Shown piece after piece: positions 28,529-64,000 of a stretch of 64,000 bases of DNA (position 1 is its first letter; each line of letters opens with the position of its first letter). The notes below the pieces were generated by a model. The model did not search any database, was not told the origin of the DNA, and was given only the letters and a program-made list of their open reading frames with translations. The position numbers and the translations under genes are program-made. The stretch spans positions 39,827 to 103,826 of the forward strand of contig JAEUTB010000103.1 of NCBI GenBank assembly GCA_016787995.1, given 5' to 3'. Source of the stretch: Flavobacteriales bacterium (GTDB taxonomy: Bacteria > Bacteroidota > Bacteroidia > Flavobacteriales_F > PHOS-HE28).

Positions 28529-28546
28529 AACCGGGCGACTTGGAGG

Positions 28547-29104
28547 CTACCGGCTGGGCTGAATGGTCAGCATGCGGAAGGCCTGCGTCGGAGCATACAA
28601 GGTAAAGGTGGCACCCCCGATACTGGTGGTGGCGCTGTCATTGTCGAAGTTGGCAAGGAGCCAATCGTGGGCCACCTGAGGCTGTGCTCCCGTGTAGGGA
28701 ACGCTGGCCACCAGTAAGAGGTAATCCCTTCCTGCCAGGGCCGTCTTGTTGACCCCATCGGCGGTGACGGTTGCACGCACAAGGCTTGCCCTGTCCACCT
28801 CGGGTCCGAAGGTCTCTGCAACGAACTCAACGGACGGCCAGGTCTGCCTACAGGTCCAGGATAGCTGGCCCGGCTTTAGGTTCTTCGTGACCGTGAATCC
28901 ACGCTGCTCCAGGTTCAGGTAGACATCGACCGGGTTGAGGTCGGAGATGACTGTCGGTGCGGGTTGCGCCTCAGGTTCCGAGGCAGCTTCAGGGGTCGTC
29001 GGTACCTCCGATTGTGTGGTGTCCGGCCCGGCCAAGTTCCCTACGATGAGGCCGAGTGCGATGATGCCGAGGATGACGGCTCCGATGATCTTCAGTGCTT
29101 TCAT
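28547..29104 (-). CDS. membrane-anchored hypothetical protein (last gene of the prophage early operon)
   Basis: N-terminal TM anchor, Pro/Glu/Ala-rich linker, beta-rich domain. 16 bp downstream of the preceding early gene. Confidence 0.5.
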   Translation of the reverse strand: MKALKIIGAVILGIIALGLIVGNLAGPDTTQSEVPTTPEAASEPEAQPAPTVISDLNPVDVYLNLEQRGFTVTKNLKPGQLSWTCRQTWPSVEFVAETFGPEVDRASLVRATVTADGVNKTALAGRDYLLLVASVPYTGAQPQVAHDWLLANFDNDSATTSIGGATFTLYAPTQAFRMLTIQPSR

Positions 29105-29120
29105 GGTTGGTTGGGTGAAG

Positions 29121-29483
29121 TTAGGGTTTGCCCGATGTACGACCGCTCGGGCGCGGATTGTAGGTTCGCTTGAATTCGATGCAGCTGTCCAGCGTGACTG
29201 TAGCTGGCAGCGTACCGCGCTTCAGATCTCCTTTGTGGGCGTAATAGCGCACAGATTCATCAGGACATCCGATCAAAATGGCAGCTGCCGCGTAGTTCAG
29301 GTCGCCTTCGGCTGCTGGCTTCGGTCTTGGACGCACCAAGCGCTCCAGTCGCGCCCACATGGTCGCGAAGGCGCGCGCCGCTACATCCTGGGCGACACGC
29401 TCTGCTGCCCGCTCCGCTACACGCTCCAAGTAGGCGCGTACACGCGGATGGCTCAACAGCTCGCTCAGCTCCTGGTCGCTCAT
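29121..29483 (-). CDS. phage early protein, unknown
   Basis: 120-aa ORF, 4-bp overlap with the upstream gene. Confidence 0.45.
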   Translation of the reverse strand: MSDQELSELLSHPRVRAYLERVAERAAERVAQDVAARAFATMWARLERLVRPRPKPAAEGDLNYAAAAILIGCPDESVRYYAHKGDLKRGTLPATVTLDSCIEFKRTYNPRPSGRTSGKP

Positions 29484-29791
29484 AGCGGCAGTTCGACAGG
29501 GAAGTTTGAAATGAACCGGATCGCGGTGACCGCAGTCTGCTCGGCTTCCTTCTTAGCCAGGTCCCTTCTAGTGCCTTTGAAGTGCGCGTTCAGGGTAGCC
29601 TGGACCAGCTCGCCCGCCTCTTCGGCTACAACGGCTGCGCCGTACACGAGGTCCTTCGGCCACTCCGGCCAGGCGCGCTTGGCGGCAAGCAGCTCGTTCA
29701 GGACCAGGCCAACGGCGACCATCTCTTCGTGGCTCAGTTTGTCCAAGAGCTCATGCGTGAGCTGTCGCGCGGTGTTATGGTGTGGTGCCAT
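29480..29791 (-). CDS. possible MazG-like NTP pyrophosphohydrolase-fold protein
   Basis: ~100-aa all-alpha ORF with an EEAGEL…E…D-type acidic motif. Weak. Confidence 0.4.
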   Translation of the reverse strand: MAPHHNTARQLTHELLDKLSHEEMVAVGLVLNELLAAKRAWPEWPKDLVYGAAVVAEEAGELVQATLNAHFKGTRRDLAKKEAEQTAVTAIRFISNFPVELPL

Positions 29792-29794
29792 GGC

Positions 29795-30145
29795 TTAGCC
29801 TAATGTAAAATCAGCGTTCCTGAGCTTTTCCAATAGAACATCGACCACTTTGCCCTTGATGTCGTGAATCTCATCATGGTCGTATCTCTCCAGGCGGACC
29901 ATGCATCCGAATTGAACAAGCCCGGTAATGAACTCATAATCCCAGAGGCGGGCCGTGATGACGACTCCATTCTTGACCATCACTCCGTTAAGGAAGGCAA
30001 TCATTCCAGTGCCGGTTACCTCCATCCGAATTGGATTGCCGTCTTCCTTCAACCAGACCTTTCCGCAGTCGTTGGAATATGCAGGATGGTGGATGGTCGC
30101 GATGATGTTCTTGTAGGGCATGTTCTTGTTGTTTGAGGGATTCAT
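29795..30145 (-). CDS. phage early protein, unknown (lower GC)
   Basis: 116-aa ORF. Confidence 0.45.
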   Translation of the reverse strand: MNPSNNKNMPYKNIIATIHHPAYSNDCGKVWLKEDGNPIRMEVTGTGMIAFLNGVMVKNGVVITARLWDYEFITGLVQFGCMVRLERYDHDEIHDIKGKVVDVLLEKLRNADFTLG

Positions 30146-30148
30146 GGC

Positions 30149-30556
30149 TCAGGTGTGATCAATCCAGCGCTCGGCGCGCAGGTAGGATGCTGGGTACTGC
30201 ATGCGGATGCCCTCGCGATTACACTTCGCGCGGTAGCTGTCGACGTACGAGAAGGCCAGTTGGTGCTTGGCCTCGGGCATACGTTCCCAGAAGGCCATGG
30301 TCTCCTTCTTTCCCTCCTTGACTCCGTACTTGCGCCAGAACTCGTCGAAGGTGACTTTGAGTACCTGGAACTTCAGGTGCGCAGCACGGAAAACTGCCTG
30401 AACGTCCTGCTCCCGCAAGGGTGCGTTGCGGAATGGCCACTCCTGGGCGGCATCGCTGGGCATGTCTTCGACCTGTACCTCGCACAGGAGGCCATTGCCG
30501 TCGTAGCCCAGGATGACGCGACCAGGGGACTTGGTGCCGGTGATGAGGTAGCGCAT
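30149..30556 (-). CDS. phage early protein, unknown
   Basis: 135-aa ORF. Confidence 0.45.
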   Translation of the reverse strand: MRYLITGTKSPGRVILGYDGNGLLCEVQVEDMPSDAAQEWPFRNAPLREQDVQAVFRAAHLKFQVLKVTFDEFWRKYGVKEGKKETMAFWERMPEAKHQLAFSYVDSYRAKCNREGIRMQYPASYLRAERWIDHT

Positions 30557-30559
30557 GGC

Positions 30560-31126
30560 TCAGAACTTATAGAGCGCGGTGAACCGTGCATTGATCGCTT
30601 CGAGCTTCGTCGTCGCGTTCAGGTCGTAGCCGTAGATGTTCAGGCCGGAGAAGGCATCGGACGGCAGGTTGTCACTGATCCACCCAATGAACTCCCATTC
30701 CGCCATGTCCCCGGTGGATAGCGTCTTCCTCGTTTCGATGATCTCGTAGGCGTCCGGCACATCCTTTGGTGCGGCCTCCTTGACGTATTCATCCAGCCAC
30801 GCGATGGCCATGTCGGGGCGGAACACGCGATCCTGTCCGAACTTCTCCATCAGGTACTCGCCGCCCTGCTCCTGAGCGAACCATTCAATGCCGTACCCAA
30901 TATTGCTCACCATGCCGGTTCTCGTAGGCGCATGGTCTCCAGCGATCACAATGCCTTCAGGGGTGAAGAGTATCATCACACTGTTGATACGTCCGCCTTT
31001 CTCCTGTCTCAGCATGTAGCCGCTAAATGCTGGCTCCGCTCCAAGGATCTTTTCCAAGGTGTGGTCCTCGAATACCTTGTCGTACATCTTGCGCAGTTCT
31101 TCACGTGTCATAGGTGGCAGGGGCAA
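30560..31126 (-). CDS. phage early protein, unknown
   Basis: 188-aa ORF. Confidence 0.5.
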   Translation of the reverse strand: MPLPPMTREELRKMYDKVFEDHTLEKILGAEPAFSGYMLRQEKGGRINSVMILFTPEGIVIAGDHAPTRTGMVSNIGYGIEWFAQEQGGEYLMEKFGQDRVFRPDMAIAWLDEYVKEAAPKDVPDAYEIIETRKTLSTGDMAEWEFIGWISDNLPSDAFSGLNIYGYDLNATTKLEAINARFTALYKF

Positions 31127-31226
31127 TGGTTGAACGGAGCTGGTGTGTTGGCAACGACCCAGGCGCCGAGGGCTAGGATGGCTGCCACCAGTGCGGCAGC
31201 CATCAGGGTTACAACAAGCTGGCGTT

Positions 31227-31706
31227 TCATGCCTCGGCCTTGGTTTGGGTCCAACTCACGCGGCCCGCTGCGATGGCATCGCGTAGCTCACTCGCTCCAT
31301 CGCTTTCGCAGGTGCGGCATCCGCAACGGAATGGCGTCTTGAATAGCAACGAGCACACCGAGCGCATGATCTCCGTAGCGGCTGTGCGCATGGTATTTCC
31401 TGCATGCTCGGGCAGGTCCTTTGTCACCGCAAGGGGGCGGATCACCCCGGTGCGTTCAACGATAGTCGTCACCACGGCAATGACATCCGGGTTCTCGCCC
31501 ATGGCCTTGCGAGCCGTGAGCGCCCAGGTGAATTCGGTGATGCTCAGCGGTCGGCCCTGCTTATCCACACAGGTGGTCGCGTGTTCCAGCAGGAGGTTCA
31601 GTAGTTCAATGGCCGTGGTTTCGTTCTTACCCAAGCGGTCCAGTGCATCGTCGAACGTGTCGAAGATGTGCGCGGCCGCTGCCTTGAGTTGTTCGCTGGT
31701 GTGCAT
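31227..31706 (-). CDS. phage early protein with C-terminal Cys cluster
   Basis: 159-aa ORF with …CSLLFKTPFRCGCRTCE…. Confidence 0.45.
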   Translation of the reverse strand: MHTSEQLKAAAAHIFDTFDDALDRLGKNETTAIELLNLLLEHATTCVDKQGRPLSITEFTWALTARKAMGENPDVIAVVTTIVERTGVIRPLAVTKDLPEHAGNTMRTAATEIMRSVCSLLFKTPFRCGCRTCESDGASELRDAIAAGRVSWTQTKAEA

Positions 31707-31709
31707 GGC

Positions 31710-31931
31710 TTAAGCGTTGGTGGTGTTGGTGTCAGCCACGCCGAGTCGTACGAGCTTGTGCTCGCCTGCGGCGATGGTGTCGGCAACGTCTTCAGGATTG
31801 CGGCCATTCAGCCAGTCGAGTTCTACCAGGACGAAGTCTCTGTCAAAGTCAAGGGCAATGCGAACGTTGCGCTTACCGAGGTCTTCGTTCAGCTCGGTGA
31901 GCCAGTCGGGCTTGGAAAGGAAGTGATGCAT
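31710..31931 (-). CDS. phage early small protein
   Basis: 73-aa ORF. Confidence 0.4.
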   Translation of the reverse strand: MHHFLSKPDWLTELNEDLGKRNVRIALDFDRDFVLVELDWLNGRNPEDVADTIAAGEHKLVRLGVADTNTTNA

Positions 31932-31958
31932 GGTCGTCTTTGGGTTTGGGGTTTGGTT

Positions 31959-32279
31959 CTAGTTGGTGTACTGCGTGAGCTTGGGGTCGAGGACCATGAG
32001 CACCATGCGCAGCTCGTTCACATGGCGCTGGTCGGTCATGAATTCCTGGCCTGCGATGGCCATGCGCCGCAGGGCGAGGGCCTGGTACACGGTGAGGATG
32101 AGCTGGTACTCCAGGCGACGAGCAGCGCGGCGCACACGGAGCCGTTCAACCAGCCTTTCAATGATGCTCCACACCATGTTGAGCGCCTCGCCACGGACCT
32201 TGTCCTGTAGCGCTTCCTCCATCACCGCGATGAGGATGCCGAGTTGGTCGTGGTCGACCTTGATGCGTACGTCAGCCAT
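31959..32279 (-). CDS. phage early protein
   Basis: 106-aa ORF. Confidence 0.45.
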   Translation of the reverse strand: MADVRIKVDHDQLGILIAVMEEALQDKVRGEALNMVWSIIERLVERLRVRRAARRLEYQLILTVYQALALRRMAIAGQEFMTDQRHVNELRMVLMVLDPKLTQYTN

Positions 32280-32694
32280 GGTTTGCGAGTAGGGCTTTGA
32301 GGTCGCTTGCCAGGATGGCCTCGGCCTGCGATACCAGCTTGGGTAGCTCGGTCACCGTGTATGCGTTCAACTCCTTCTTGAGGTAGCCGTACTTCCGCAC
32401 CCAGCCGTACACGCGCGGCATGTCGGGTTTGCCTTGGGTGTTGATTACACCTCGGTCCGCGAGGATGGCGATCACCTTGCGCCGCATGCGCTGTGGCGCC
32501 AGCTTCTTCGGGTCGAGATTCATTTCTTCGATGCGGCGCTCCAGGCGCCGCAGTTCGGTATCGTTCAGCTTGCGCAGGCTGTCCGTGGCGCCTTGGGTGA
32601 ACTCGCTGACCAGCTCACCGTGTGTCTCGTATGGCCAGTGCGGGTCGCGCTTCGCGTCGTTCCACAACAGGAAGAATCGTTTGTAGGAGCTCAT
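32272..32694 (-). CDS. phage early protein
   Basis: Start at MSSYKRFFLLW…; ATGA-coupled to the upstream gene 32691-32939. Confidence 0.45.
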   Translation of the reverse strand: MSSYKRFFLLWNDAKRDPHWPYETHGELVSEFTQGATDSLRKLNDTELRRLERRIEEMNLDPKKLAPQRMRRKVIAILADRGVINTQGKPDMPRVYGWVRKYGYLKKELNAYTVTELPKLVSQAEAILASDLKALLANHG

Positions 32695-32939
32695 GATCTC
32701 TGGTCTGGGTTCAAAGAGTTCTTCGATGGCTTTGATGCGGCTGGCGTGGATGGCTGCGGCTCGCTGTGCGCTGCTGTCCAGCTCTGTATCGCCAGCTCCA
32801 GCTCGCGGCGTTCCTCTGGTGTTGATGCCTCGTTCAACTGCCGTTGGAACTGCGCGATCATGTCCGCCACGGCCTGCTGGTACTCCGTGTCGAACAGCGT
32901 GAGGTGAGCCGTGCCAGTTGCCTTCGGTTTGCGAGCCAT
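32691..32939 (-). CDS. phage early small protein
   Basis: 82-aa ORF. Confidence 0.4.
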   Translation of the reverse strand: MARKPKATGTAHLTLFDTEYQQAVADMIAQFQRQLNEASTPEERRELELAIQSWTAAHSEPQPSTPAASKPSKNSLNPDQRS

Positions 32940-32969
32940 GTGTGGTCACGATGTGCTGGCGCCAGTCGT

Positions 32970-33194
32970 TCATCGCACGTTGCTGGCATCAAGCCATTTC
33001 ATCAGAGCCGTGTGGATGCGTTCGCGCGTTTCCGGCCCCTTCTTCACAGGCCCCTGGAAGGTGTTCGGGCCAGAGTCGCGCAGGGTCCAGTTGCGCGGCC
33101 CCACGGTTAGGGTGAGCACGCCGATGGTGTGTGTGCCCAGGATGGGCTTGCTACGCAGTGCGTGGAATTCGCCGATGTACTCGTCGCGGGTCAT
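32970..33194 (-). CDS. phage early small protein
   Basis: Start at MTRDEYIGEF…. Confidence 0.4.
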   Translation of the reverse strand: MTRDEYIGEFHALRSKPILGTHTIGVLTLTVGPRNWTLRDSGPNTFQGPVKKGPETRERIHTALMKWLDASNVR

Positions 33195-33379
33195 TGTAGG
33201 TAGGCTAGGGTTTGGGTAAGGAGGTCGGATAGCGAGGCGAGCTCTGCGGCCAGCTCGGCCTTGCGGTCTGGGTCTGTCTCTTGCTCCCACACGTACTGCT
33301 TCCGCTCGATGAGCTCGCGGTACTGCTCCACATCGCGCTCGATGCGCGTACGGTCGAAGGGTCCTAGTTCGGCGGGCAT
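33191..33379 (-). CDS. phage early small protein
   Basis: 62-aa ORF. Confidence 0.4.
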   Translation of the reverse strand: MPAELGPFDRTRIERDVEQYRELIERKQYVWEQETDPDRKAELAAELASLSDLLTQTLAYLQ

Positions 33380-33394
33380 TTTTCTTCAGTTGAG

Positions 33395-33467
33395 GGGTCA
33401 GAACAGGATTCGAACCTGTATCGTGAGGTGCTACCTCACCGCCTATCCATTTCAGCCATCTGACCCA
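33395..33467 (-). tRNA. tRNA-like gene (phage-encoded) with an extra 5' G(-1):C73 pair; anticodon-loop assignment ambiguous
   Basis: The reverse strand gives GGGTCAGATGGCTGAAATGGATAGGCGGTGAGGTAGCACCTCACGATACAGGTTCGAATCCTGTTCTGACCCC. The T-arm is perfect (ACAGG-TTCGAAT-CCTGT), the acceptor stem is 7 bp, G18G19 sit in the D-loop, and the anticodon stem is GTGAG/CTCAC with loop GTAGCAC. Confidence 0.55.
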
Positions 33468-33597
33468 TGTGGCCGGGGTTCATTCGCCATGACTTCCCCC
33501 CGGCCTGTCCGTGCTGTTCCGGACCGTCACGTGATTCTTGATCTCTTTGATGAATGGGCTGAAAGGATCACGGAACCGTTGACCATTGCGTTGGTTT

Positions 33598-34239
33598 CTA
33601 CATGGCGCTCCAGTTCATCACCACGTCGCGCCACTTTCCTCCCGGCTCGCGGCGGTACGCTCGGATGTACATCTGGCTCGTGGTCGGCTTGTAGGCCTTG
33701 GCCAGAATGTCCAGGGCCTCGCTGAACCGCTTATCGTCGACCGCTTCCTCATGCTTACGCAGGCGAGCCACCAGGCGCTCGTCGTAATCGCCTGTGCCGT
33801 TCTTGCTGAGGATGTCGTCGATGATCCTGTACATCGACTTGTTGCGGCCTTCGAACTTGTCGCGCAGCACGGCCTTGATTGTGTCGATGGCAACCGTGCT
33901 GGTCTCGTCGTATTCACAGCGCCACTGACGTTCGATGCTGACCCTTCGCAGGCCATCGGCACTGGTGAGCGTGTAGCTGTCGATACCGTCCTTCGGTTCA
34001 CGACCCAGCGTCTGGTACATCTTGGTGTGCAACTCGATCCCCAGCTTCACGCTTTCGCCTTTGAAGTCGCGGAGCTGAGCGCTCAGATCCTCCATCTTGG
34101 AGAACACGGTATCGATGTAGCTATCGCGCAGTTGGTCGTAGCCTTTCTTGGCGTTCGCTTTCGCGGCCTTCTCCTCGGCCTTCTTCTTCTTGAGCAGGGC
34201 CTGCAATTCGGCCGCGCTCATGGTCTCAACACTCGACAT
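33598..34239 (-). CDS. phage early protein, Lys/Glu-rich N-terminus
   Basis: 213-aa ORF. Confidence 0.5.
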   Translation of the reverse strand: MSSVETMSAAELQALLKKKKAEEKAAKANAKKGYDQLRDSYIDTVFSKMEDLSAQLRDFKGESVKLGIELHTKMYQTLGREPKDGIDSYTLTSADGLRRVSIERQWRCEYDETSTVAIDTIKAVLRDKFEGRNKSMYRIIDDILSKNGTGDYDERLVARLRKHEEAVDDKRFSEALDILAKAYKPTTSQMYIRAYRREPGGKWRDVVMNWSAM

Positions 34240-34681
34240 GGTTGGTAGGGGTTTGTTGGGGTTGCATTACAGGGGGCAGGACTAGCACGCGCTTCTCCTC
34301 CACGAGCTTCATCCAGGTATCGAAGGCGCGCTGGTAGTGTGCGGTGTACCGAAGGCTGTAGGCCTCATCGAGCATGCGCTTGCGCAGCCATTCCTGGGGC
34401 TGTAACCGCTCCAGGCTCTCAGGCCCGAACCATTCAGCCGCCAGCCGCACTTCGAACGCGCGGAACGTGTGCTCGTACCAGGTCCACCAGCCAATGGCAC
34501 CGAGGTGGTTGCGGTACAGGTCGCATGCGTCCTTGCTGATCGTGCCCACGGGGCGCACCAGGTCATCAAGGCACTGGCACCCGCTCTCCAGGATAAGGAG
34601 GTGGTACTCCAGCTCATCCATGCCGGTGGCCGCTTGCAGCTGCGCACGGGCTTCGTTGCTCAGTTTGATCAGGGCGTTCAT
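34226..34681 (-). CDS. phage early protein
   Basis: 151-aa ORF overlapping the start of the B-like gene. Confidence 0.5.
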   Translation of the reverse strand: MNALIKLSNEARAQLQAATGMDELEYHLLILESGCQCLDDLVRPVGTISKDACDLYRNHLGAIGWWTWYEHTFRAFEVRLAAEWFGPESLERLQPQEWLRKRMLDEAYSLRYTAHYQRAFDTWMKLVEEKRVLVLPPVMQPQQTPTNHVEC

Positions 34682-35580
34682 GCGGCGATGCGGGATTTGA
34701 GGACTTCACGTCGGACCGTACGCATGTCGAACTCGCGGGACAGCATACGGTTGGTGCGTTCGGGGTCGGTGAGGCCGTTAGCCTCGGCCACGAGTAGAGC
34801 CTCAGCTCGGAGGAACTCCTTGCGCTCCTTGGCACCTTCGGGCAGCACGGTAGTGAAGCGGCTACCAAAGCGGCTAAACACCTCTTCAAAGCCGTTCGTG
34901 CGGTTGCGAATGGCGCTGTCGATGCGCTTCTTCAATCCACGCGCACCAACCAGGTACATGCCGCAGCGGAACTCCAGTTCGTTGTAGATGCGCTTGAGGA
35001 GGAGGTAGGTATTGTTGTGCAGGTCACCAGCCTCGTCGATGACGATCACCGGATTCGGCAGCGCGCTCAGGTAGGCAATGGTGTCCAGGAGAACATCCTC
35101 CACCTTGCTCTTGTCGGGGTTGATGCCCACCGCCTGCGCCAGGGCGCGGATGAAGGCCACCTTGCGCGGGAAGCTGCCGCCGTTGATGTAGAAGGCGTTC
35201 GGCGTGTTGGCACAGAACTCCTTGGCCGCATGTGTCTTGCCCAGGCCAGCCTCGTCGCAGAAGATGGCGCTCAGGCCATCCTTGGCGCACATCTCAAGCT
35301 GGCGACGGATGGCACGGTAGGTCATTGTCTCCGCCGTTACCCAGGACTGGCGTGGGCTGAACTCGTAGCCCACCGTGCGTGCGATGCGGATCCACTTCTG
35401 CACGCTCAGCAGCTTGTCATTCGCGCGCCACTTGGCATTCTCGATGTTGCTGAAGTCGCTGCTGGTGATGCCGATGGAGACGGCATACTTGTTCCTGCTG
35501 GTGAAGCCGCTGGCGCGGTATGCCGATAGCAGCTTGCGTGCAATGCCTTCCTTGTGCTGTGTGCTGAGTGCTGGATTCAT
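34678..35580 (-). CDS. MuB-like AAA+ transposition ATPase
   Basis: Walker A CDEAGLGKTHAAKEF and Walker B VIVIDEAGDL. Positioned immediately downstream of the transposase. Confidence 0.8.
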   Translation of the reverse strand: MNPALSTQHKEGIARKLLSAYRASGFTSRNKYAVSIGITSSDFSNIENAKWRANDKLLSVQKWIRIARTVGYEFSPRQSWVTAETMTYRAIRRQLEMCAKDGLSAIFCDEAGLGKTHAAKEFCANTPNAFYINGGSFPRKVAFIRALAQAVGINPDKSKVEDVLLDTIAYLSALPNPVIVIDEAGDLHNNTYLLLKRIYNELEFRCGMYLVGARGLKKRIDSAIRNRTNGFEEVFSRFGSRFTTVLPEGAKERKEFLRAEALLVAEANGLTDPERTNRMLSREFDMRTVRREVLKSRIAA

Positions 35581-35600
35581 CGTTCGGGGGTCTGCTGGTT

Positions 35601-37894: not shown

Positions 37895-37968
37895 AAGTGG
37901 GACAAACGTATTGAGGATCCTCTATACTGTCAAGAGGTATCTCAATAGATAGTTTTCAACATCGAAAG

Positions 37969-39329: not shown

Positions 39330-39341
39330 ACCACAGAAGCA

Positions 39342-39686: not shown

Positions 39687-39722
39687 CGCAACCCGCAACA
39701 TGCCCGGCACGTACCACGTGCT

Positions 39723-39983: not shown

Positions 39984-40021
39984 TTCTGCGTTGAAGTGCC
40001 GACGATGGCTGCTTCGCGGCC

Positions 40022-40768: not shown

Positions 40769-40820
40769 ACCGTTCGCTGTGAATTGATACGCATGGCTTC
40801 GATCGGTTCTTTGTTGCTCA

Positions 40821-53909: not shown

Positions 53910-53972
53910 CCCGAACGCCACCAGGTCACAGAACATCAACCGCGCTTCAACGCGCATTGAACACAGGTTAGA

Positions 53973-55244: not shown

Positions 55245-55246
55245 CC

Positions 55247-55678
55247 ATGGCAACAGAGATCATCAACAACTTCGGCCAGGTGGCCGGTTGGAACCAGCAC
55301 AGCGTTGTGCTGCTCGGTCGCAAGCTCGTAGGTATCTCCAAGATCTCCTACAAGGACAGCACCGAAGTGGAGGCCATCTACGGAGCTGGTGGATACCCCG
55401 TAGGTACCGGCGACGGCAACTACAGCGCCGAGTGCGGCATGACGCTCCTGAAGGAGGAGGTGGAAGCACTGCTCGGCAGCTTGCCAGCTGGCAGCCGCCT
55501 ACAGGACATCCCCGCTACGGACATCCCGATCCTTACCATCCGCAACGGCCGCACCACCAAGGACGTGATCCGGAACTTCCGGTTCACCGGCCTCGGTAAG
55601 GAGGTGAGCCAAGGCGACAAGAGCGTGTACCTGGAGATGCCGTGCTTCTGCACGCACATCGACTGGAACGTGCAGTAA
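55247..55678 (+). CDS. tail tube protein candidate
   Basis: 143-aa ORF whose position and size match a myovirus tube. Confidence 0.5.
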   Translation: MATEIINNFGQVAGWNQHSVVLLGRKLVGISKISYKDSTEVEAIYGAGGYPVGTGDGNYSAECGMTLLKEEVEALLGSLPAGSRLQDIPATDIPILTIRNGRTTKDVIRNFRFTGLGKEVSQGDKSVYLEMPCFCTHIDWNVQ

Positions 55679-55735
55679 GAGCCGTTGCGACCGCGCTGAA
55701 GAGGCACCTGAATACCCCGAACCCAAACCAAACCA

Positions 55736-56083
55736 ATGGCCAAGAAGAACGACGTATCGCGCCTCCCAGAAGGCGTCACCGAAGAGAAGCTCAAGCAGCT
55801 GATCGCCAAGCACGGCACCGTATACCCCATCCGCCAGGTGGATGGGGACAAGATGTATCGCGGCCTGTTCCGCAAGCCGAACCTGGCCGACATGAGCGCA
55901 GCCTCGAGCCTGGGTAATGACCAGATCGCGGCAGGTCGATTGGTGTACGAGAGCTGCAAGCTCGCCGTGGACCCTGGCGTTGAGGATAACGACGAAGTGT
56001 TGCTCGCGTTCATCAAGGGCGTGAACAAGCTCTTTCGCAGCCTCGAAGCAGAAGTGGGGGAACCATTCGGCGCCGCGCAATAA
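55736..56083 (+). CDS. tail assembly chaperone (with -1 frameshift extension to 56259)
   Basis: 115-aa ORF. An overlapping -1 frame ORF ends exactly at the tape-measure start. A G-run at 56055-56060 is a candidate slip site. Confidence 0.55.
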   Translation: MAKKNDVSRLPEGVTEEKLKQLIAKHGTVYPIRQVDGDKMYRGLFRKPNLADMSAASSLGNDQIAAGRLVYESCKLAVDPGVEDNDEVLLAFIKGVNKLFRSLEAEVGEPFGAAQ

Positions 56084-56259
56084 GCCACAGCGCGGGCGCC
56101 GACCAACTGCGAAAGGGGCGAGCGCTGGTCAGAAGCGAGTTCGGCATCGATCCGGATTCGCTTACCGATAGGCAGTTCATAGAGTACTGGATCGAAGCCG
56201 ACTGGCTTCTGCATTACAAGGCCGAGCTGCTCGGTAAGCGGCTCGGCCTCATCAAGTAA

Positions 56260-58401
56260 ATGGCCGACCGCATCACCATAGACATCTCGATCCTGCAAGG
56301 GATCTTCGGCGACCTCAACAAGCTGCAACAGCAGCTCGTTGGGGTCTCCGGCGGTGCCATGGCGGTGGACAGCGCGGCCAGCAAGGGATTCGGCGGCATG
56401 CGCACAGCGGTCACCGGTGCCACCACTGCCGTGAATGGTCTGGACCGCTCGGTGGATGCCAGCATGCGCAACATCGTCGGCGATATCATGGCGCCGATCG
56501 CGAAGACCCAGGAGCTGGAGAACAAGCTCCGCACCCTGGGTGACCAGGTACGCACCTCCAAGAGCGTGCGGGAGATCGTAGCGCTGAAGAAGGAAATCGC
56601 CGCTACCCAACGCGAGCTGGATGGCGTGAACCCCTCGGGGATGGAGCAGAAGGTGAGCGGCTCCTTTGGTCGCATCCGCAGCATGGTAGGTTCAATGGCA
56701 GCGCCACTTGTGGGCGCTTTCGCTGTGAGCGGCCTTACCATGTTCGCCGGTGACCTAGTGCGCTCCGCTGGAGCGGCCCAGCAGTTCGATACGGCGCTCA
56801 CCAACATGCTCCAAAGCAAGGAACGTGCGAACGAGCTGAGTGCCGATGTGAAGGCCTTTGCCGCGACCACGCCATTCGAACTGCCCGAGGTACAGGACGC
56901 CACGAAGAAGATGCTCGCCTTCGGCTTTGGTGCCGAGGACACCATACCCACGCTACGGCGCCTAGGTGACGTCGCTGCGGGCCTCGGACAGCCGGTTGGG
57001 GACCTGGCCTACCTGTACGGCACGACGCGCGTCCAGGGGCGTCTGTACACGAACGACCTGATGCAGTTCGCCAACCGTGGCATCCCCATCATTGAGGAGC
57101 TGGGGAAGGTGCTCGGCGTTAGCCAGGCTGAGGTGAAGAACCTGGTGGAGAAAGGCAAGGTCGGCTTCCCTCAAGTGGAGCAGGTCTTCGCCAACCTCAC
57201 CGCTCAGGGCAGCAAGTTCGGTGGGCTGATGGCCGCGCAGAGCTTGACCATCACTGGTCAGATCAGCAACCTGAGCGATGCCTGGGGGCAATTCAAGACG
57301 GACATGGGCCTGGCCATGGCCCCGCTCATCACCGGCATCATCGGCGGTCTTTCGGGCGGCATCGGATACCTCCGCGAAACGTTCGCCTGGGTAAGCGACA
57401 ATGGCGGTCTCGTCCTGGGTATCCTGCAAGGGGTAGCCGTGGCCGTTGGTGTGTACACCGCAGCCTTGGCCATCAACAGCGCAGCCACCTTCGTGAATAC
57501 GCTGGCCCAAAGTGGTGCAGTGGCCGCACTTGGCCTTACCGCCACGTGGACAACGCTCACTACCGCTGCAACGAACATCGCGGCCGCCGCCCAGTGGGCA
57601 TGGAACGCTGCGCTGAGCGCTAACCCGATCGGCCTGGTCGTAGTGGCCATCGCTGGTCTCGTCGCCGGTATTGTTTGGGCCTGGAACAACTTCGAAGGAT
57701 TCCGTGGTGTGGTGATGGGTGTGTGGGAGGTGCTCAAGGCAACGTTCGCCTGGATCATGGACTTCATCTCGCCGGTTATCGATGCGCTCGTATTCCAGTG
57801 GAATCTGTTCCGCGTCGGGCTAGAGCTTACCTGGGAAACGTTCGTCTCCGGCATCACAACCGTTGGCGAATGGCTCAATGTGTTCTGGGGATGGATCAAA
57901 GGCTTCGTCAGTAAGGTCGTGTCCGTGTGGAGTGCGATGGCTGATATCCTCCTCGCTCCATTCCGCACACTGTTCAGTGTACTGGCCAAGATCCCAGGCA
58001 TGGACAAGTTCATTGGCGCCGCCAAGGAACTCGGCGGCAAAGTGGGCGAAGCGTTCAGCCGTGGCCAGGAGGAAGGCCTCGCCACCTTCAACGGCGACAA
58101 GGCCGTGGAGAAGGGCGCACTCGCAACGCCTGGCATCTCAGCAGCCGCTCTCGCTAAGCCTGGTCAGGATATAGGCGCAGCGGCCTTGGTGGGCGGTGCT
58201 CCGAAGGCGGGCGCAAAGACCGAAGGTGTCACGGTCGGTGGCGATGCGAAGGGCAGCGGCCGCACGATCACCATGGACATCAAGATCACGAACAACATCG
58301 CCATGCCACGTGATGGCAACATGGGCGTGCGTGAGCTGGCAGAGAAGGTGACAGCCGCCATCGTGAACAAGATGAACGACGCGCAATTCGCGATGGGCTA
58401 A
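56260..58401 (+). CDS. tail tape measure protein
   Basis: 713-aa ORF with coiled coil and Gly/Ala-rich hydrophobic segments typical of a TMP. Confidence 0.8.
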   Translation: MADRITIDISILQGIFGDLNKLQQQLVGVSGGAMAVDSAASKGFGGMRTAVTGATTAVNGLDRSVDASMRNIVGDIMAPIAKTQELENKLRTLGDQVRTSKSVREIVALKKEIAATQRELDGVNPSGMEQKVSGSFGRIRSMVGSMAAPLVGAFAVSGLTMFAGDLVRSAGAAQQFDTALTNMLQSKERANELSADVKAFAATTPFELPEVQDATKKMLAFGFGAEDTIPTLRRLGDVAAGLGQPVGDLAYLYGTTRVQGRLYTNDLMQFANRGIPIIEELGKVLGVSQAEVKNLVEKGKVGFPQVEQVFANLTAQGSKFGGLMAAQSLTITGQISNLSDAWGQFKTDMGLAMAPLITGIIGGLSGGIGYLRETFAWVSDNGGLVLGILQGVAVAVGVYTAALAINSAATFVNTLAQSGAVAALGLTATWTTLTTAATNIAAAAQWAWNAALSANPIGLVVVAIAGLVAGIVWAWNNFEGFRGVVMGVWEVLKATFAWIMDFISPVIDALVFQWNLFRVGLELTWETFVSGITTVGEWLNVFWGWIKGFVSKVVSVWSAMADILLAPFRTLFSVLAKIPGMDKFIGAAKELGGKVGEAFSRGQEEGLATFNGDKAVEKGALATPGISAAALAKPGQDIGAAALVGGAPKAGAKTEGVTVGGDAKGSGRTITMDIKITNNIAMPRDGNMGVRELAEKVTAAIVNKMNDAQFAMG

Positions 58402-59042
58402 TGGAACTGCCTCGCTTCAATATTCCATCCGCGCTAGCGCTGCTCTACGGCATCGTTCGTCCGATCACGTTCCCCGGCCTCGCAACTGAAGCCGAGCAGC
58501 AGAATCCGGACATCAGTTTTAGTGGCGTGCAAGTCGTGCCGGACGAAGAGGCGCGTGCGACAAGCCACATCGGCACACCCATCTTCTATCCCATCACCCT
58601 GCGCGGTGGTACGTACAAGAGCTACGACCACCAGGGTAAGGTGGTGGATACTCAGCTTGGCGATCTCCGCCTACCGATCAGCTCGGTGGTGGAGATGAGT
58701 AGCACCAAGGTGATCACGAAGACACAGGTGAGCGCCAGCGGTGCCAGCGTGAAGGAGGTGTATGGCTTTGGCGACTGGGATATCCGCATCACCGGTATCC
58801 TGTTCGATGAGCAGACACATCCGAACGGCGCCAATACCGTGGAAACGATGGAAGCGCGTCTGCTGGAGTTCGATGAGCTGGCTGACAGCATTGGAGTGGA
58901 TGCAGATCTGTTCAACCGCCGTGGCATCGACCGCCTAGTGATCCGCTCCATCAACTTCCAAGCGATCCCGGGAAAGCCTCGCCTTATCGGCTACCAAATG
59001 CAGTGTGAATCTGACGCACCTATCGAGCTCCTGATCCAATGA
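58401..59042 (+). CDS. tail protein, unknown (213 aa)
   Basis: ATGA-coupled to the TMP gene. Confidence 0.45.
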   Translation: MELPRFNIPSALALLYGIVRPITFPGLATEAEQQNPDISFSGVQVVPDEEARATSHIGTPIFYPITLRGGTYKSYDHQGKVVDTQLGDLRLPISSVVEMSSTKVITKTQVSASGASVKEVYGFGDWDIRITGILFDEQTHPNGANTVETMEARLLEFDELADSIGVDADLFNRRGIDRLVIRSINFQAIPGKPRLIGYQMQCESDAPIELLIQ

Positions 59043-59239
59043 TGCACCACCACGACGAACATGCGACCATTGCGCTGAGCATCTTGGCAGGCACTGCTAC
59101 CTGGATCGCCGACCCGAACGTTTGGCGTGCGCTGGCAGTTGCTGCCGCCTGCGGCTTCGTTGGTGGTGTAGCGAAGGCGGCAGGCTTCTGGGCGTGGAAC
59201 AAGGTGCGCGAGCACCGCAACAAGACGAAGAAGGGATGA
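59039..59239 (+). CDS. small membrane protein
   Basis: 66-aa ORF with two hydrophobic helices. Confidence 0.35.
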   Translation: MMHHHDEHATIALSILAGTATWIADPNVWRALAVAAACGFVGGVAKAAGFWAWNKVREHRNKTKKG

Positions 59240-60204
59240 CGCTGGCCATGTGCTGTCATATCGTCTTCGCGGCTAACGACCGGCGTGGCGCCATTGAGCT
59301 GCGCCAGGTGTCGAGCGTGGAGGTCAGTAGCAGCATCCAGGATGTTTGCCAGTCGGCCACCATCACACTGCCGCGCAACATCCCGGCCTTCCTCAATACT
59401 GAATTGAAGCAGCTCATTCGTCGCGGCGACGAGGTGAGCATTTCGTTGGGCTACGACGGCGACCTGCGCGTGGTGGAGTTTTCTGGTTTGGCCACCCGCG
59501 TGGGCGCCGACGTTCCCGTCGTCATCGAGTGCAAGGATCGGCTCTGGAAGGTTCTTCAAGAGCCGTTTCACAAGGCCTACAAGAATGCCTGGATACCCGA
59601 GGTCTTAGAAGACATGGTGGGAGGCAAGTTGAAGTACGAGGCTATCGATGCGCGCGTGGGGCCGATGCGCGTGGTGAAGGGGAAGAAGGCCGATGTGTTC
59701 AAGGCCCTCAAGGACGAGTTCGGACTGGTCACCTACCTGAAGGGCGACACGGTCTTTTGCGGCGTGCTGTTCGACGCCAACGCACGCACCGCCACCTACG
59801 CTCTAGAGCGCAACGTGAAGAGCAGCGACCTGGTGTACAGAACTGCCGATGAGGTGAGCCTGAAGGTGACCGCTACGAGCATCAAAAGGGACGGCACCAA
59901 GATCGAGGCGGTTGTGGGTGATCCGGAAGGCGAAACGCGTACGCTCAACTACTACGGCATCACCTCTAAGGAGGAGCTGGAGAAGATAGCGACCGTCGAC
60001 CTTGAGCGGTTCAAGTTCGACGGCTACGAGGGAGGCCTGAAGGGCTTCGGCATTCCGGTATGTCAGCACGGCGACAAGGTGCAACTCACCAGCTCTGACC
60101 ACCCGGAACGCGACGGCCTCTACCTGGCCGAATCGGTCGTCGTTTCCTTCGGCCCTGATGGGTTCCAACGTGACATCAAATTGGCGCAGCAATGGACAGC
60201 TTAG
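59236..60204 (+). CDS. tail/baseplate hub protein, late control D (GPD)-like
   Basis: 322-aa ORF. Size and position after the TMP match Mu gpP / P2 gpD. Confidence 0.55.
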   Translation: MTLAMCCHIVFAANDRRGAIELRQVSSVEVSSSIQDVCQSATITLPRNIPAFLNTELKQLIRRGDEVSISLGYDGDLRVVEFSGLATRVGADVPVVIECKDRLWKVLQEPFHKAYKNAWIPEVLEDMVGGKLKYEAIDARVGPMRVVKGKKADVFKALKDEFGLVTYLKGDTVFCGVLFDANARTATYALERNVKSSDLVYRTADEVSLKVTATSIKRDGTKIEAVVGDPEGETRTLNYYGITSKEELEKIATVDLERFKFDGYEGGLKGFGIPVCQHGDKVQLTSSDHPERDGLYLAESVVVSFGPDGFQRDIKLAQQWTA

Positions 60205-60692
60205 AGAAGCTCAAGCTCGCCATCATCGAGTCCATCAAGTCCCGCATTCCGGTGCAGACGATCTGGGCCGAATGTGTCAGCACGAACATCGAGGACGGCA
60301 CCATGGTCGCCAAAGCCGACGAGCTGGAGTACGATGACGTGCTCCTTGGCCTCGGTCCCGATATCACGGTGCCCGAGGTAGGCGCAAAGGTGCTCCTCGG
60401 CCTGGTGGCCAACCAGCGCGAGGCCACTTATCTGCTCTACACAGACCGCATATCTCTACGTCGTATCAATGGCGACGTGTTCGGCGGCCTGGTAAAGGTC
60501 GAAGAGCTGGTGATGGAGCTGAACAGCATCAAGCAGGACTTGAACACGCTGAAGGCTTCCATCACAGCATGGGTTCCCGTGCCGAGTGATGGTGGTGCTG
60601 CACTCAAGGCATCGGTCACGGCTTGGTCGTCACAATCGTTGCAGCCTGCCGTTTCTGCTCAACTCCAGAACCCCATCGTTACCCATGGCTGA
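60192..60692 (+). CDS. baseplate protein (166 aa)
   Basis: Overlaps its neighbours. Confidence 0.45.
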   Translation: MDSLEKLKLAIIESIKSRIPVQTIWAECVSTNIEDGTMVAKADELEYDDVLLGLGPDITVPEVGAKVLLGLVANQREATYLLYTDRISLRRINGDVFGGLVKVEELVMELNSIKQDLNTLKASITAWVPVPSDGGAALKASVTAWSSQSLQPAVSAQLQNPIVTHG

Positions 60693-60966
60693 GCGCGACT
60701 TCATTCTGGGTGATGACGGGGACATTCAGGTCCGCAACGGTGACTTCGTCGCAGGCGAGAGCCTCACTCAAGAGGTGGCGCTGATCATGCTCACCAACAA
60801 GGGCGAGATCCGCCATGATCCTCTGTGCGGCTGCGACCTGCTGAAGATGACCAACGCTCGCATGAACAGGGCGCAGCTCGAACGCCTGGTGCGCGTGCAG
60901 CTGGAGCGCGATGGCAAGAACTGGAGCGACGTGAAAGACGGTATCAATCTGCGCACCAATGGCTAG
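60685..60966 (+). CDS. baseplate wedge protein, GPW/gp25-like
   Basis: 93-aa ORF with …EIRHDPLCGCDL… resembling the gp25/W family. Confidence 0.6.
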   Translation: MAERDFILGDDGDIQVRNGDFVAGESLTQEVALIMLTNKGEIRHDPLCGCDLLKMTNARMNRAQLERLVRVQLERDGKNWSDVKDGINLRTNG

Positions 60967-61270
60967 CACAGTGATCGTACAGCCAGGACAGAGCTTGGAG
61001 GATATCGCCCTTCAGGAATACGGCAGTATCGACGGCGTGCGTGAAGTCGTGATGGATAACGAGGACGTCTTCGTCGATGGCTTCAATACTCGGCTGTTGC
61101 CAGGGACGACTCTCGTAGTTCGCGACGTGCCGCTGAACCGCGTCGTGTATTCCACCATGCGCAAACTGCGCATTGTTCCTGCTACGCTCGGCGACAATGG
61201 CCCTGACCCACTCGGGACACAGGGCGACTATAACGGGGACTTCAACGGCGACCACTTCATCACTACCTAA
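60959..61270 (+). CDS. tail protein (103 aa)
   Basis: Overlapping start. Confidence 0.4.
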   Translation: MASTVIVQPGQSLEDIALQEYGSIDGVREVVMDNEDVFVDGFNTRLLPGTTLVVRDVPLNRVVYSTMRKLRIVPATLGDNGPDPLGTQGDYNGDFNGDHFITT

Positions 61271-62373
61271 TGGCAACGTTCATCTTTAATACCCTGCCCG
61301 AGCTGATCACGTACCTGACAGGACAGATCGGCCCGAACGGTGATCAGGAGATCACCGGTCAGCGCCATCAGGATGTGGTGGTCACCATCGCGCAGAGCCT
61401 CGTCAACATCGTCGCGTCCATCCCGCCGACGACCGTCAACCAGTTTCCTCCGTACAACGCGGGCACGGTGTACACCGGCGGTCTGGAAGTCGTGGTGCGC
61501 CACTCGGGCAAGCTGTGGCTCTTTGTGAGCTCTACCAACCAGCTCGCCGTTACGCCAGGCACCAACGCCCTTGTGTGGCAAGAACTCACAGCCGTGCAGC
61601 TGGCGCACTTCCGCAACCAGGATCAGATGCTGGACCAAGGCGGTCCGAATCAGGTCACCGCAGCCGAGCTAAAGGCGCTTCTCGGTGCGCAGAGTACGTT
61701 GACCTGGAAGCCGCCATTCGATGATGTGGGCGCAACTCCGCCGGTAACGCCCGAGGCTGACTTTGTATGGTTGGTCGATGTTGGTGCGACCGGTGCCTGG
61801 GCAGGCCATGAACTGACGCTCGCCAAGTGGGTGCTCGGTGCGTGGCAATACACTCAGCTGGTCGATGGTGACGTGACGCGTTGGACCGGAGGTGGCTTCA
61901 TCGTGTTCGTGACCGGTGGTGCTTTGGAGCTGTTCGACCTCAATATGCTGGCCACGCCTCCGGCTGCCACTCTTGCGCAGGTACTTGAGCAAGGACGGAG
62001 CAGTGGACCTTATCGCCCTATCCTTCAAAGGAGCTTCCATCTTCCGCCAACCTCGATAAATCACAGCGCGTCTGGAACGCTTACGTTGGACCCGGCCACT
62101 TCTGCATCCTGGGCCATCACCCTTACGGCCAATCTTACCCTGGCGGCAAATAGCACAGCGGCTACAGGGCTCTACTTCATCGATCTGTATGGCAGCACAG
62201 GGACCTCATTCACGTTCGGCGTGAACTCTACCATAGTCGTTGGCCTTGGTGTGTCATTACCCAGCACCATACTCAACGGTGAGCACTACAAGCTCGTTTG
62301 CACCAGCCAGTATGTGGGTGGTGAAGCGACCTCGAATGCTCTGGTCATCATCGGCTGTTACAAGATCAACTGA
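61270..62373 (+). CDS. tail/baseplate protein (367 aa)
   Basis: Thr/Gly/Ala-rich. Confidence 0.45.
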   Translation: MATFIFNTLPELITYLTGQIGPNGDQEITGQRHQDVVVTIAQSLVNIVASIPPTTVNQFPPYNAGTVYTGGLEVVVRHSGKLWLFVSSTNQLAVTPGTNALVWQELTAVQLAHFRNQDQMLDQGGPNQVTAAELKALLGAQSTLTWKPPFDDVGATPPVTPEADFVWLVDVGATGAWAGHELTLAKWVLGAWQYTQLVDGDVTRWTGGGFIVFVTGGALELFDLNMLATPPAATLAQVLEQGRSSGPYRPILQRSFHLPPTSINHSASGTLTLDPATSASWAITLTANLTLAANSTAATGLYFIDLYGSTGTSFTFGVNSTIVVGLGVSLPSTILNGEHYKLVCTSQYVGGEATSNALVIIGCYKIN

Positions 62374-62375
62374 CC

Positions 62376-63218
62376 ATGGCAATCACAAGCGAAGAGATCT
62401 ATAACCAGCTGGCGCAAAAGGTAGCCGAGCAGCCTGGTCTTGCTGGTTTGTCCCCAGCGCCTGATTCGGCCGCACAGCTGGCCACGGCCTTGTCCTCGAA
62501 CAGCCGCGTGTCCATCTGGCGGTTGCTGATGCGCGCGGTGAGCTATGTCCATAAGACCCAGCAGGACAACTTCGACCGCTTCCGGCTGGAGGTGGTCGGT
62601 CTGGCCAGGGACAACATGTACGGGACGCGCCGCTGGTTCATCGCCCGAGCGAAGGCCTTTCAGATCGGACACAGCCTGGTGTTCACCTCGAACGATGCTC
62701 AGTACGCCACGGATGATCCTGCGGCACGTATCGTGACACATGCGGCCGTGGTGGAACTCGCCAACGTGGTGGTGGTGAAGGTGGCAAAGGCAGCGGGAAC
62801 GGGCCTGGCCAAGCTCACTAGCGCCGAGCAGGTGGCCATCAACGACTACTTCCAGGAGCTGCGCCCACCGGTGCAAGTTGCCGTGCTTACGGCCGACCCA
62901 GATCGCATCAAGCTCAATGGTTCCGTCGTGTACGATGGCCAGACGCCTCTCGGAGGTGTTCAGTCGGCCGTCCAGTTCGAACTGGCACAGTACCTCAAGT
63001 CCCTCGACTTCGGCGGCGTCGTGCGGCTTACCGACCTGCGCGAGGCCATTCTGCGCGCCTCCGGCGTGGTCGATGTACGACTGGACCTAGTTGAGGTGCG
63101 TACGACCGGCCCGTACACCACGATCCCGCGCGTACACTACACCTACGCTGGCCACGCAATCATCGATCCAGCCTGGCCAATAACGAGCAGCCTGCAATGG
63201 GCGGTCGGTAACGTCTGA
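62376..63218 (+). CDS. baseplate J-like protein candidate (280 aa)
   Basis: Position after the W-like gene. Confidence 0.45.
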   Translation: MAITSEEIYNQLAQKVAEQPGLAGLSPAPDSAAQLATALSSNSRVSIWRLLMRAVSYVHKTQQDNFDRFRLEVVGLARDNMYGTRRWFIARAKAFQIGHSLVFTSNDAQYATDDPAARIVTHAAVVELANVVVVKVAKAAGTGLAKLTSAEQVAINDYFQELRPPVQVAVLTADPDRIKLNGSVVYDGQTPLGGVQSAVQFELAQYLKSLDFGGVVRLTDLREAILRASGVVDVRLDLVEVRTTGPYTTIPRVHYTYAGHAIIDPAWPITSSLQWAVGNV

Positions 63219-63772
63219 TGACCTACGACTTCGACATACCCACCATCATCCGCCGGTTCGTTCCGGTGTGGTTCCGCCGACCGCGCAACCTTCAGTACGC
63301 CTATGCGCTGGCCAGCTGGTGCGAACGCATGCATCAGCAGTTCCTCACATGGCGCGAACAGGAGGTCCTGAGTCACTGGCGGTACAATGGCCTGGTGCAT
63401 TCGTTGGAATGGCTGATGAACGATGCATGGGACACAATCCAACGCCGCATCTACATCACCGTGGCCGACCAGGTGCCTGTGGTGTACCACGCGACTGAAG
63501 GCGACCCTGTGGTGGCCAACTACCTGACGGAGGGCGTTCTGAGCGGCTATTACCACTTGGACGAGTCGGCGATCTCGGAGCCGTACCGATACGAGTTCCT
63601 GGTCAACATCCCGGTCGCCTTGGGGGGCATCCCTACGACCATTCTCTTCCAGCAACTCGACATCTTCCGTTTCGCGGGTCGTCGACCTGCCATCCGCTTC
63701 TTCGACCCCGATGACAACACGGTGTCGATGGTCTACTACGACGCCACTGAACCACCGTTTAACCAGCTCTGA
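63218..63772 (+). CDS. tail protein (184 aa)
   Basis: Start overlaps the upstream stop. Confidence 0.45.
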   Translation: MTYDFDIPTIIRRFVPVWFRRPRNLQYAYALASWCERMHQQFLTWREQEVLSHWRYNGLVHSLEWLMNDAWDTIQRRIYITVADQVPVVYHATEGDPVVANYLTEGVLSGYYHLDESAISEPYRYEFLVNIPVALGGIPTTILFQQLDIFRFAGRRPAIRFFDPDDNTVSMVYYDATEPPFNQL

Positions 63773-64000
63773 TGGATCGTTTCAAACCTCGCTCAGGCAC
63801 GCCCGCTCCCTACTGGCGGCACATGACCTACATCGCCGACAGCTACGACCGCGCCATCCGCTCGGCCTTTGCTGACTACCTGGCCATTGCCGACTCGTTC
63901 ATCATCCAAGGTGGCCTTATCACGGAGACGCCATCGGGAACGAGTACGGTCTACAGCGTCACCGCTGGCCACGCCTTCTACAAAGGCGAGCTGCTATACT
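63772..64000 (+). CDS. tail protein, 5' part only (continues beyond the window)
   Basis: Open frame running to the window end. Confidence 0.35.
   Translation, partial: MDRFKPRSGTPAPYWRHMTYIADSYDRAIRSAFADYLAIADSFIIQGGLITETPSGTSTVYSVTAGHAFYKGELLY

Follow-up and report, generated by a model that had tools for sequence, protein, structure and literature searches.

The stretch of DNA considered here (hereafter the window) comprises 64,000 nucleotides of contig JAEUTB010000103.1, positions 39,827 to 103,826, from the metagenome-assembled genome (MAG) P0226 of a Flavobacteriales bacterium (assembly GCA_016787995.1). Its right-hand part carries, from left to right, an attL-type end, an early operon read leftwards, a divergent control region, then an open reading frame (ORF) at the repressor position, a methylase gene and a gene for an extracytoplasmic function (ECF) sigma factor, all read rightwards, a packaging block read leftwards, a capsid, lysin and contractile-tail block read rightwards and finally attR (Table 1). 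This region is very probably one intact Mu-like transposable myovirus prophage, c. 36.9 kb long and residing in a Flavobacteriales chromosome. It falls within a group of Bacteroidota phages that includes the hankyphage (Bacteroides phage p00, BK010646; Benler 2018 PMC6199706; PMC12135933) and the isolated Elizabethkingia phage TCUEAP3 (OK632026), and its only lineage-specific trait is that, between attL and the sigma-factor gene, an early/immunity segment of c. 12 kb is inverted. A sequence-only reading of the window had proposed a single Mu-like transposable phage with a non-canonical gene arrangement. The single transposable phage is borne out by the empty insertion site, the right junction, the inverted end motifs and the fold of the transposase, and all of the genes and orientations listed in that reading were recovered at their coordinates by ORF listing and profile scans.

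Limits of the prophage and its insertion site

Five prophage-free contigs from near-identical genomes (L017, L018, L019, L021 and L022) match the host flank at 98-100%, only as far as base 28123; on contigs of this kind a search with the flanking host protein located a version of it with 313 aa. By megablast L017, L019 and L021 match the window from 17188, 18217 or 18222 to 28123 at 98.1-98.8% and nothing further to the right. Alignment shows the window to be the same as the empty-site contigs up to ...TATCGTGGT (base 28123) and unrelated beyond it, with base-level divergence beginning after ...ATCGTGGT; the empty sites themselves read TATCGTGGTGCTGGAATAG. As the match to these genomes stops at 28123, bases 28124-64000 are inserted DNA relative to them. 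The start of the element, given as 28540 in the sequence-only reading, is thereby moved to 28123/28124, and the additional c. 420 bp are the left end with its four repeats. Base composition shows no break between the element and the host flank, and sorting domains of the type IX secretion system (T9SS) occur in proteins encoded by that flank, which places the host in the Bacteroidota. A transposase identical to that of the element is recorded from a Flavobacteriales MAG (locus tag JNJ91_05205).

The element had been expected to continue beyond the window and it does so for 1,009 bp, to window-equivalent position 65009. This gives a length of c. 36,887 bp, in agreement with the contigs of 35.8-38.9 kb (about one genome length) that carry many of the relatives. 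Window 62006-64000 recurs with 100% identity in contig L001, which runs on for another 1,008 bp, while L020, obtained by searching with the host gene downstream of the empty site, overlaps L001 (2226-3003) by 778 identical bases. The right junction on L020 reads ...GCCGTTTATA, then GTGGT, then GCTGGAATAGGG, and continues into the host gene that also follows the empty site; longer readings of it are ...TGTACGATTCGTTTTGCACGATCTGTGCGATTCGTTTTGCCGTTTATA GTGGT GCTGGAATAGGG and GATCTGTACGATTCGTTTTGCACGATCTGTGCGATTCGTTTTGCCGTTTATA GTGGT GCTGGAATAGGGAGG... The source contig at window-equivalent 65009 is expected to read ...GCCGTTTATA followed by GTGGTGCTGGAATAG and a gene for a 441-aa protein with a T9SS domain. 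Searches of IMG/VR and JGI metagenomes with tail or protease proteins yielded nothing useful for the right end.

GTGGT occurs at both junctions of the prophage and once in the empty sites. The 5-bp target duplication anticipated by the sequence-only reading is thus present as a flanking repeat with a maximal length of 5 bp, but the host GTGGTG at the junction permits a duplication of 3, 4 or 5 bp. The register of the tips and the termini of contigs favour TA tips and a 4-bp duplication. Insertion duplicated these 3-5 bp four codons before the stop of a host gene encoding a helix-turn-helix (HTH) and pentapeptide-repeat protein (27192-28160, +). Only the last residues of this protein are replaced: the native 313 aa end in ...VVLE, and the ORF in the lysogen reads into the phage tip to give 322 aa. 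Insertions of the relatives lie in host contexts that are unrelated. A host G immediately precedes the left tip at all six junctions (window 28122; L005 55; the L007 junction; L028; L029 18679; L030 20215); since two contigs stop exactly at TA, this G is more suggestive of a target preference than of an extra phage base.

The tips of the element are 5'-TAAGGG...TTTATA-3' (the left tip being AAGGG if the duplication is 5 bp) and not the TG...CA termini that had been predicted. Behind the left tip lie four direct copies of a 16-nt motif, CAGAACGAANCGTACA, and at the right end, on L001 and L020, two adjacent copies inverted relative to them; these end motifs resemble transposase-binding sites. 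At up to three mismatches the motif has six matches in the window against 1.08 expected, a number reached in none of 100 shuffles, and four of the six lie in 28132-28446. Starting from the TA tip, the left end (TAAGGGTCCCCGAACGAAAGGGACA) stays in register with the right end when the latter is reverse-complemented (TATAAACGGCAAAACGAATCGCACA). Neither an integrase-type element nor a pair of elements, the outcomes which the sequence-only reading had set against its own, is indicated: no integrase, invertase or recombinase gene was found among the ORFs scanned, and the motif scan revealed no other end-like sites or second end pair in the window.

Homologues of the attL-type region are found at the ends of L005, L006, L007, L027, L028, L029 and L030 and where the hankyphage record begins. 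TA(A/T/G)GGG tips (TAAGGG, TATGGG or TAGGGG) were identified in L005, L006, L027, L028, L029 and L030 and at the start of the hankyphage record, and overall the same TA tips are found in eight relatives as well as in that record. The end motifs of the relatives co-vary, e.g. TGTACGCTTTGATTTGAAC is present three times in L006. With L007, the closest relative found (transposase 84% identical), homology runs through the left-end repeats and diverges at ...CCTTAC. Contigs L027 and L006 end exactly at the tip.

By analogy with Mu and the hankyphage, the transposase and its partner ATPase would act on the repeated sites at both tips (four left, two right, inverted) to insert and replicate the genome, and packaging, presumably by the headful from the left end, would carry host flanks. 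The contigs of L006 and L027 that stop exactly at tips are an indirect hint of such replicative transposition and headful packaging with variable host flanks.

Two further features were noted at the left end. A spacer motif, AACCCCGAAAA(G/T)CCGG(T/G)AAACCCGCG, lies between the first and second sites at 28157-28182 and is kept with small variations in L007, L027, L028, L029 and L030, which represent both gene layouts described below; it may be a host-factor or packaging site. A 112-aa ORF (28224-28562, +) extends across left-end repeats, and translated search finds a match to it in L007; it was rejected as a gene and, from the DNA alignment with L007, judged to be conserved non-coding end DNA.

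Gene content

Table 1. Features of the prophage and its insertion site (positions in the window)
Feature	Position	Strand	Remarks
GTGGT direct repeat, left	28119..28123		target-site duplication (3-5 bp), four codons before stop of host gene
Left end (attL-type)	28123..28546		tip 5'-TAAGGG, then four direct copies of transposase-binding-like motif
Left-end motif copies	28132-28147, 28227-28242, 28396-28411, 28431-28446	direct	16-nt motif
Intrinsic-terminator-like hairpin	28503..28528	-	11 pairs, 9 G-C; between early operon and attL; conserved in L007
Early operon	28547..37894	-	ner-position ORF, transposase, MuB-like ATPase, DUF3164, tRNA, ~13 small ORFs; transcribed towards left end
tRNA gene	33395..33465	-	ARAGORN Ala, anticodon AGC; Rfam RF00005 41.1 bits (gathering score 29)
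MuB-like AAA+ transposition ATPase	34678..35580	-	AAA_22 E=4.4e-10; phrog_296 'DNA transposition protein' E=1.2e-34
DDE transposase, predicted MuA/TnsB fold	35601..37649	-	682 aa; candidate catalytic D299, D375, E407
ner-position ORF	37646-37894	-	82 aa; putative role, from position
Divergent control region	37895..37968		74 bp; imperfect inverted repeat TTGAGGATCCTC / GAGGTATCTCAA
Immunity-repressor-position ORF	37969..38385	+	138 aa; divergent from early operon; putative role, from position
Plus-strand block	38534..41661	+	small ORFs and the three genes below
Dam-type methyltransferase	40022-40768	+
ECF-type sigma factor	40821-41369	+
62-aa ORF	41473-41661	+
Packaging/head-accessory block	41658..49617	-	reads 49617 to 41658
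549-aa protein	41658-43307	-	phrog_6911 N-terminus
Mu G-like	43304-43858	-	Phage_tail_S (Mu G) 1.4e-5
Portal-MuF-PBECR2 fusion	43947-46820	-	957 aa; Portal_Mu E=3e-61; Phage_Mu_F 8.8e-11; PBECR2 nuclease-like 8.5e-12 (C-terminal)
Mu gp36-like	46884-47399	-	Phage_Mu_Gp36 6.9e-6
TerL	47393-48928	-
65-aa ORF	48928-49125	-
DUF1804/TerS-like	49135-49617	-
Capsid/lysin/contractile-tail block	49709..64000	+	continues 1,009 bp past window
ClpP protease	49709-50851	+
Major capsid	50740-51966	+	as listed; true start uncertain
CHAP lysin	52039-53364	+
Sheath	53973-55244	+
Tube	55247-55678	+
Tape measure	56260-58401	+
Baseplate genes	to 63772	+
307-aa gene, 73-aa gene, right end	past window		on L001 and L020

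The MuA-like transposase and MuB-like ATPase of the sequence-only reading were both upheld. For the transposase the Pfam rve match is weak (E=4.5e-4, below threshold), and it was a Foldseek search with its AlphaFold model (predicted local distance difference test, pLDDT, 84.9) that gave clear matches, to TnsB (9bw1_M, 1.8e-14), the MuA transpososome (4fcy_A, 9e-12) and the MuA core (1bcm, 1e-8), the first two covering most of its length. The three candidate catalytic residues are invariant in an alignment of 31 sequences, with a DDE spacing of 76 and 32 residues. On this predicted fold the protein is settled as a DDE enzyme of the MuA/TnsB type. Directly downstream of it lies the MuB-like gene. 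In a translated search the nearest phage relatives of the transposase all have Bacteroidota hosts and are 23-28% identical to it. Its family numbers ~55 relatives with identities of 43-100%, mostly from Flavobacteriales MAGs and Logan assemblies; most are without a precomputed Pfam domain, and sources that give the family a name say only 'hypothetical protein'.

The early operon does point away from the late genes, as had been read, and the hairpin beyond its last gene would end early transcription ahead of attL. Its tRNA gene has U3:A70 in the acceptor stem and lacks G3:U70, so that the amino-acid identity is unclear; a G3:U70 pair is the alanine identity mark of tRNA. ARAGORN found no corresponding tRNA in relatives L003-L008, the one hit in L007 being Pro(TGG) on the opposite strand at another position.

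ORFs are present where Ner-like and repressor HTH proteins had been proposed, but neither has a match to Pfam, NCBIfam or PDB profiles and their roles are assigned by position. A single-sequence AlphaFold model of the repressor-position ORF was unusable (pLDDT 43.8). This ORF lies 9.85 kb from the left tip, in keeping with the earlier placement of the repressor in mid-element and not at an end. The 74 bp between the two ORFs form a putative operator. At the immunity position the window and L007 have the 138-aa ORF without S24, whereas Peptidase_S24 (LexA/CI-like) repressors of 180-288 aa were found there in L025 (8881-9672), L027 (193-1059), L028 (481-1023) and L030 (8168-8968), which implies an exchange of immunity modules. 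PADLOC detected no defence genes among 10 proteins without a family (eight small early or plus-strand ORFs, the repressor-position ORF and the 549-aa protein).

The fusion of a DUF935-like portal to a Mu gpF domain was confirmed, and to it can be added a C-terminal PBECR2 domain, absent from the sequence-only reading and predicted to be nuclease-like. The Portal_Mu, Phage_Mu_F, Phage_tail_S and Phage_Mu_Gp36 matches are all above the Pfam cut-offs. A portal-MuF-PBECR fusion in a single polypeptide is a published architecture (Iyer 2017, PMC5512222) and is kept as one frame or gene in L003, L004, L007, L025, L029, L030 and a JGI contig. Conservation of the 549-aa protein that ends the packaging block is confined to its c. 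160 N-terminal residues, as shown by 145-185-aa homologues in L003, L005, L030 and TCUEAP3; the remaining c. 390 residues, at the C-terminus, differ from relative to relative and may represent a swappable cargo domain.

The ECF sigma factor of the phage probably drives both divergent late blocks from the 92-bp region between them (49618-49708). A perfect 18-nt palindrome, ACGGGGTACGTACCCCGT, is found in this gap between the small-terminase-like and ClpP protease genes, at 49650-49667, and might be where a regulator of the two late transcription units binds.

Comparison with known transposable phages

Among 50,697 phage records megablast found nothing that matches 28-52 kb of the window. The hankyphage has a MuA-like transposase, 23% identical over 81% of that in the window, and a MuB-like ATPase. 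Its packaging block (MuF, portal, a gene at the gp36 position, TerL and TerS) is likewise inverted and divergent from the ClpP protease, capsid and lysin genes and then the tail genes, and its genome record starts TAAGGG, as does the left tip here. Insertion of the hankyphage is at random sites with 5-bp direct repeats, and host DNA is found at both virion ends (PMC6199706, PMC12135933). The two differ in that the hankyphage has its repressor at the extreme left with the early operon reading inwards, a segment that is inverted as a whole in the present element. In addition its portal and MuF are separate genes, it carries a diversity-generating retroelement, none of which was seen here, and its host is a gut Bacteroides as opposed to an environmental Flavobacteriales MAG of ~60% G+C.

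Of the phages matched by the transposase, TCUEAP3 ranks first (28% identity, 90% coverage, E=9e-64). It shares the inversion of the packaging block, its capsid gene is directly followed by an amidase gene, and its right end, reverse-complemented as TATAATCGCCAAAATTGAATTTCACA, is similar to that of this element. However, its early region is ordinary, its portal and minor head protein are separate and a Mom-like gene is located at its right end. The inversion of the packaging block relative to the capsid/tail block, one of the peculiarities claimed by the sequence-only reading, is therefore real but not non-canonical, since the hankyphage and TCUEAP3 share it: it is the normal plan of Bacteroidota Mu-like phages.

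With Escherichia phage Mu the element shares a DDE transposase of the same predicted fold, a MuB-type ATPase, homologues of the portal gpH, F, G and gp36, and a contractile tail. In both, each end has more than one binding site, those at the left set apart and those at the right side by side, and the duplicated target is short. Mu gp30 (F) also ends in a PBECR-type domain (PMC5512222). In Mu, by contrast, all lytic genes read from left to right, the ends are TG...CA and the activators are Mor and C, in place of which this phage has an ECF sigma factor; similarity between the transposase sequences is undetectable by profile search, and the candidate DDE spacing read from the alignment (76 and 32 residues) is a further difference.

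Rearrangement of the Mu plan has precedents. Burkholderia phage KS10 and the BcepMu-like phages have a split head module and, compared with Mu, an inverted left genome part (PMC2628397), and such rearrangements are therefore tolerated. The transposase of this group is nevertheless of a Tn552-related lineage, no Burkholderia phage was among the matches of the transposase search, and it is the packaging genes that lie at the far left in KS10 as against the early operon here. According to its citation in PMC7761591, an article of 2018 by Toussaint and Van Gijsegem has 'two genomic organisations' in its title.

Orientation of the early segment

Among the relatives two layouts can be distinguished. 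In the ordinary layout, seen in L005, L027, L028, TCUEAP3 and the hankyphage, the tip is followed by the repressor (leftwards), the ner-position gene, A, B and early genes (rightwards), the sigma factor and the packaging block. The flipped layout of the window is seen in L003, L004, L006, L007, L008, L025/L026, L029, L030 and the JGI contig. Here c. 12 kb, with the last early gene at one end and the methylase at the other, are inverted, flanked by the same attL-type end and sigma-factor gene as in the usual layout, and homology between the attL regions of the two layouts extends past the binding sites. Trees of the transposase and of MuB both place L005, of ordinary layout, as sister to the flipped L006 (transposase 80% and MuB 93% identical) inside the flipped clade, from which it follows that there have been at least two changes of orientation.

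The occurrence of both orientations in relatives as close as L005 and L006, which are 85% identical in nucleotides over A, B and the early genes, could point to a programmed switch like the G segment of Mu, flipped by a site-specific recombinase. This is improbable, as the scanned ORFs include no invertase or recombinase gene, no inverted repeats were found at the segment borders (28.45-28.55 kb and 40.77-40.82 kb), and the genes adjacent to the borders differ between layouts, as in old rearrangements. The lack of an invertase and of border repeats therefore argues for repeated evolutionary rearrangement rather than a switch, and the inversion is a fixed evolutionary rearrangement of the sub-lineage.

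It could also be argued that the halves of the region, which converge at 41.4-41.7 kb, are two adjoining elements, namely a c. 13-kb transposon-like element (28.1-41.5 kb) with the transposase block beside or within a tailed prophage that is unrelated to it and perhaps defective (from 41.6 kb on); the early block alone does resemble a self-contained unit with an end at 28.1 kb. Such an arrangement is very unlikely given that beyond the tail genes comes the matching inverted end and then the duplicated target and host gene, that the empty site lacks both halves at once and that the same junction of the halves is kept in more than nine relatives, including genome-length contigs. Moreover, there is no end motif elsewhere in the window, the sole other minus-strand match having three mismatches and lying inside a coding region at 42764, and neither genomes with only one half at the site nor transposase-binding repeats near 41.5 kb were seen. 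An assembly or binning artefact has next to no probability, even with a MAG as the source and with repeats at phage ends that often break assemblies, because the flipped layout is common to ten independent assemblies and the same order and orientation recur in NCBI MAG, IMG/VR, JGI and Logan assemblies at 58-84% transposase identity, with coding sequence continuous over both segment borders.

The interpretation as one intact transposable prophage with an inverted early segment has to be set against several observations that count against it. The tips are TA...TA and so depart from those of Mu. The right junction lies outside the window and is reconstructed through two contigs from other sequencing runs, with overlaps that are 100% identical and the same host flank. 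As judged by sequence the transposase does not emerge as MuA, with no PHROG match and nothing significant from phmmer or a seven-sequence profile against PDB. No GemA or Mor homologue was detected among the early ORFs by Pfam or PHROG match, and these are core genes of the 'Saltoviridae' (PMC7761591, citing Hulo 2015); GemA is likewise undetected in Bacteroidota phage fF4 (PMC7761591). The sequence data hold no evidence of prophage activity. Finally, L005 is a single 13.8-kb MAG contig and the conclusion that orientation changed at least twice depends on its assembly.

What is new is thus an arrangement within a known group of transposable phages and not a new kind of system, comparable rearrangements being known (KS10, PMC2628397). 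The prophage is delimited and apparently intact, with ends, flanking repeat and empty site defined for an environmental member of the Flavobacteriales, and it allows the general Bacteroidota plan (inverted packaging block, lysin after the capsid gene and TA tips) to be separated from the flipped early module of one lineage. The end motifs and tips could aid automated detection, as common prophage search methods are reported to miss this type (PMC7761591).

The divergent control region of Mu doubles as a transposition enhancer. If the early/immunity segment, with its divergent control region, has flipped more than once among close relatives, then transpososome assembly and the lysis-lysogeny circuit might be indifferent to the orientation of the control region and to its distance from the ends (0.3 kb versus 9.8 kb), or else the transposase itself might make such inversions by intramolecular events; this is a tentative proposal that is on balance doubtful. 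Pairs of close relatives with opposite orientations of the early module nevertheless provide material for asking whether the function of a Mu-type enhancer/operator depends on position and orientation outside the Mu paradigm.

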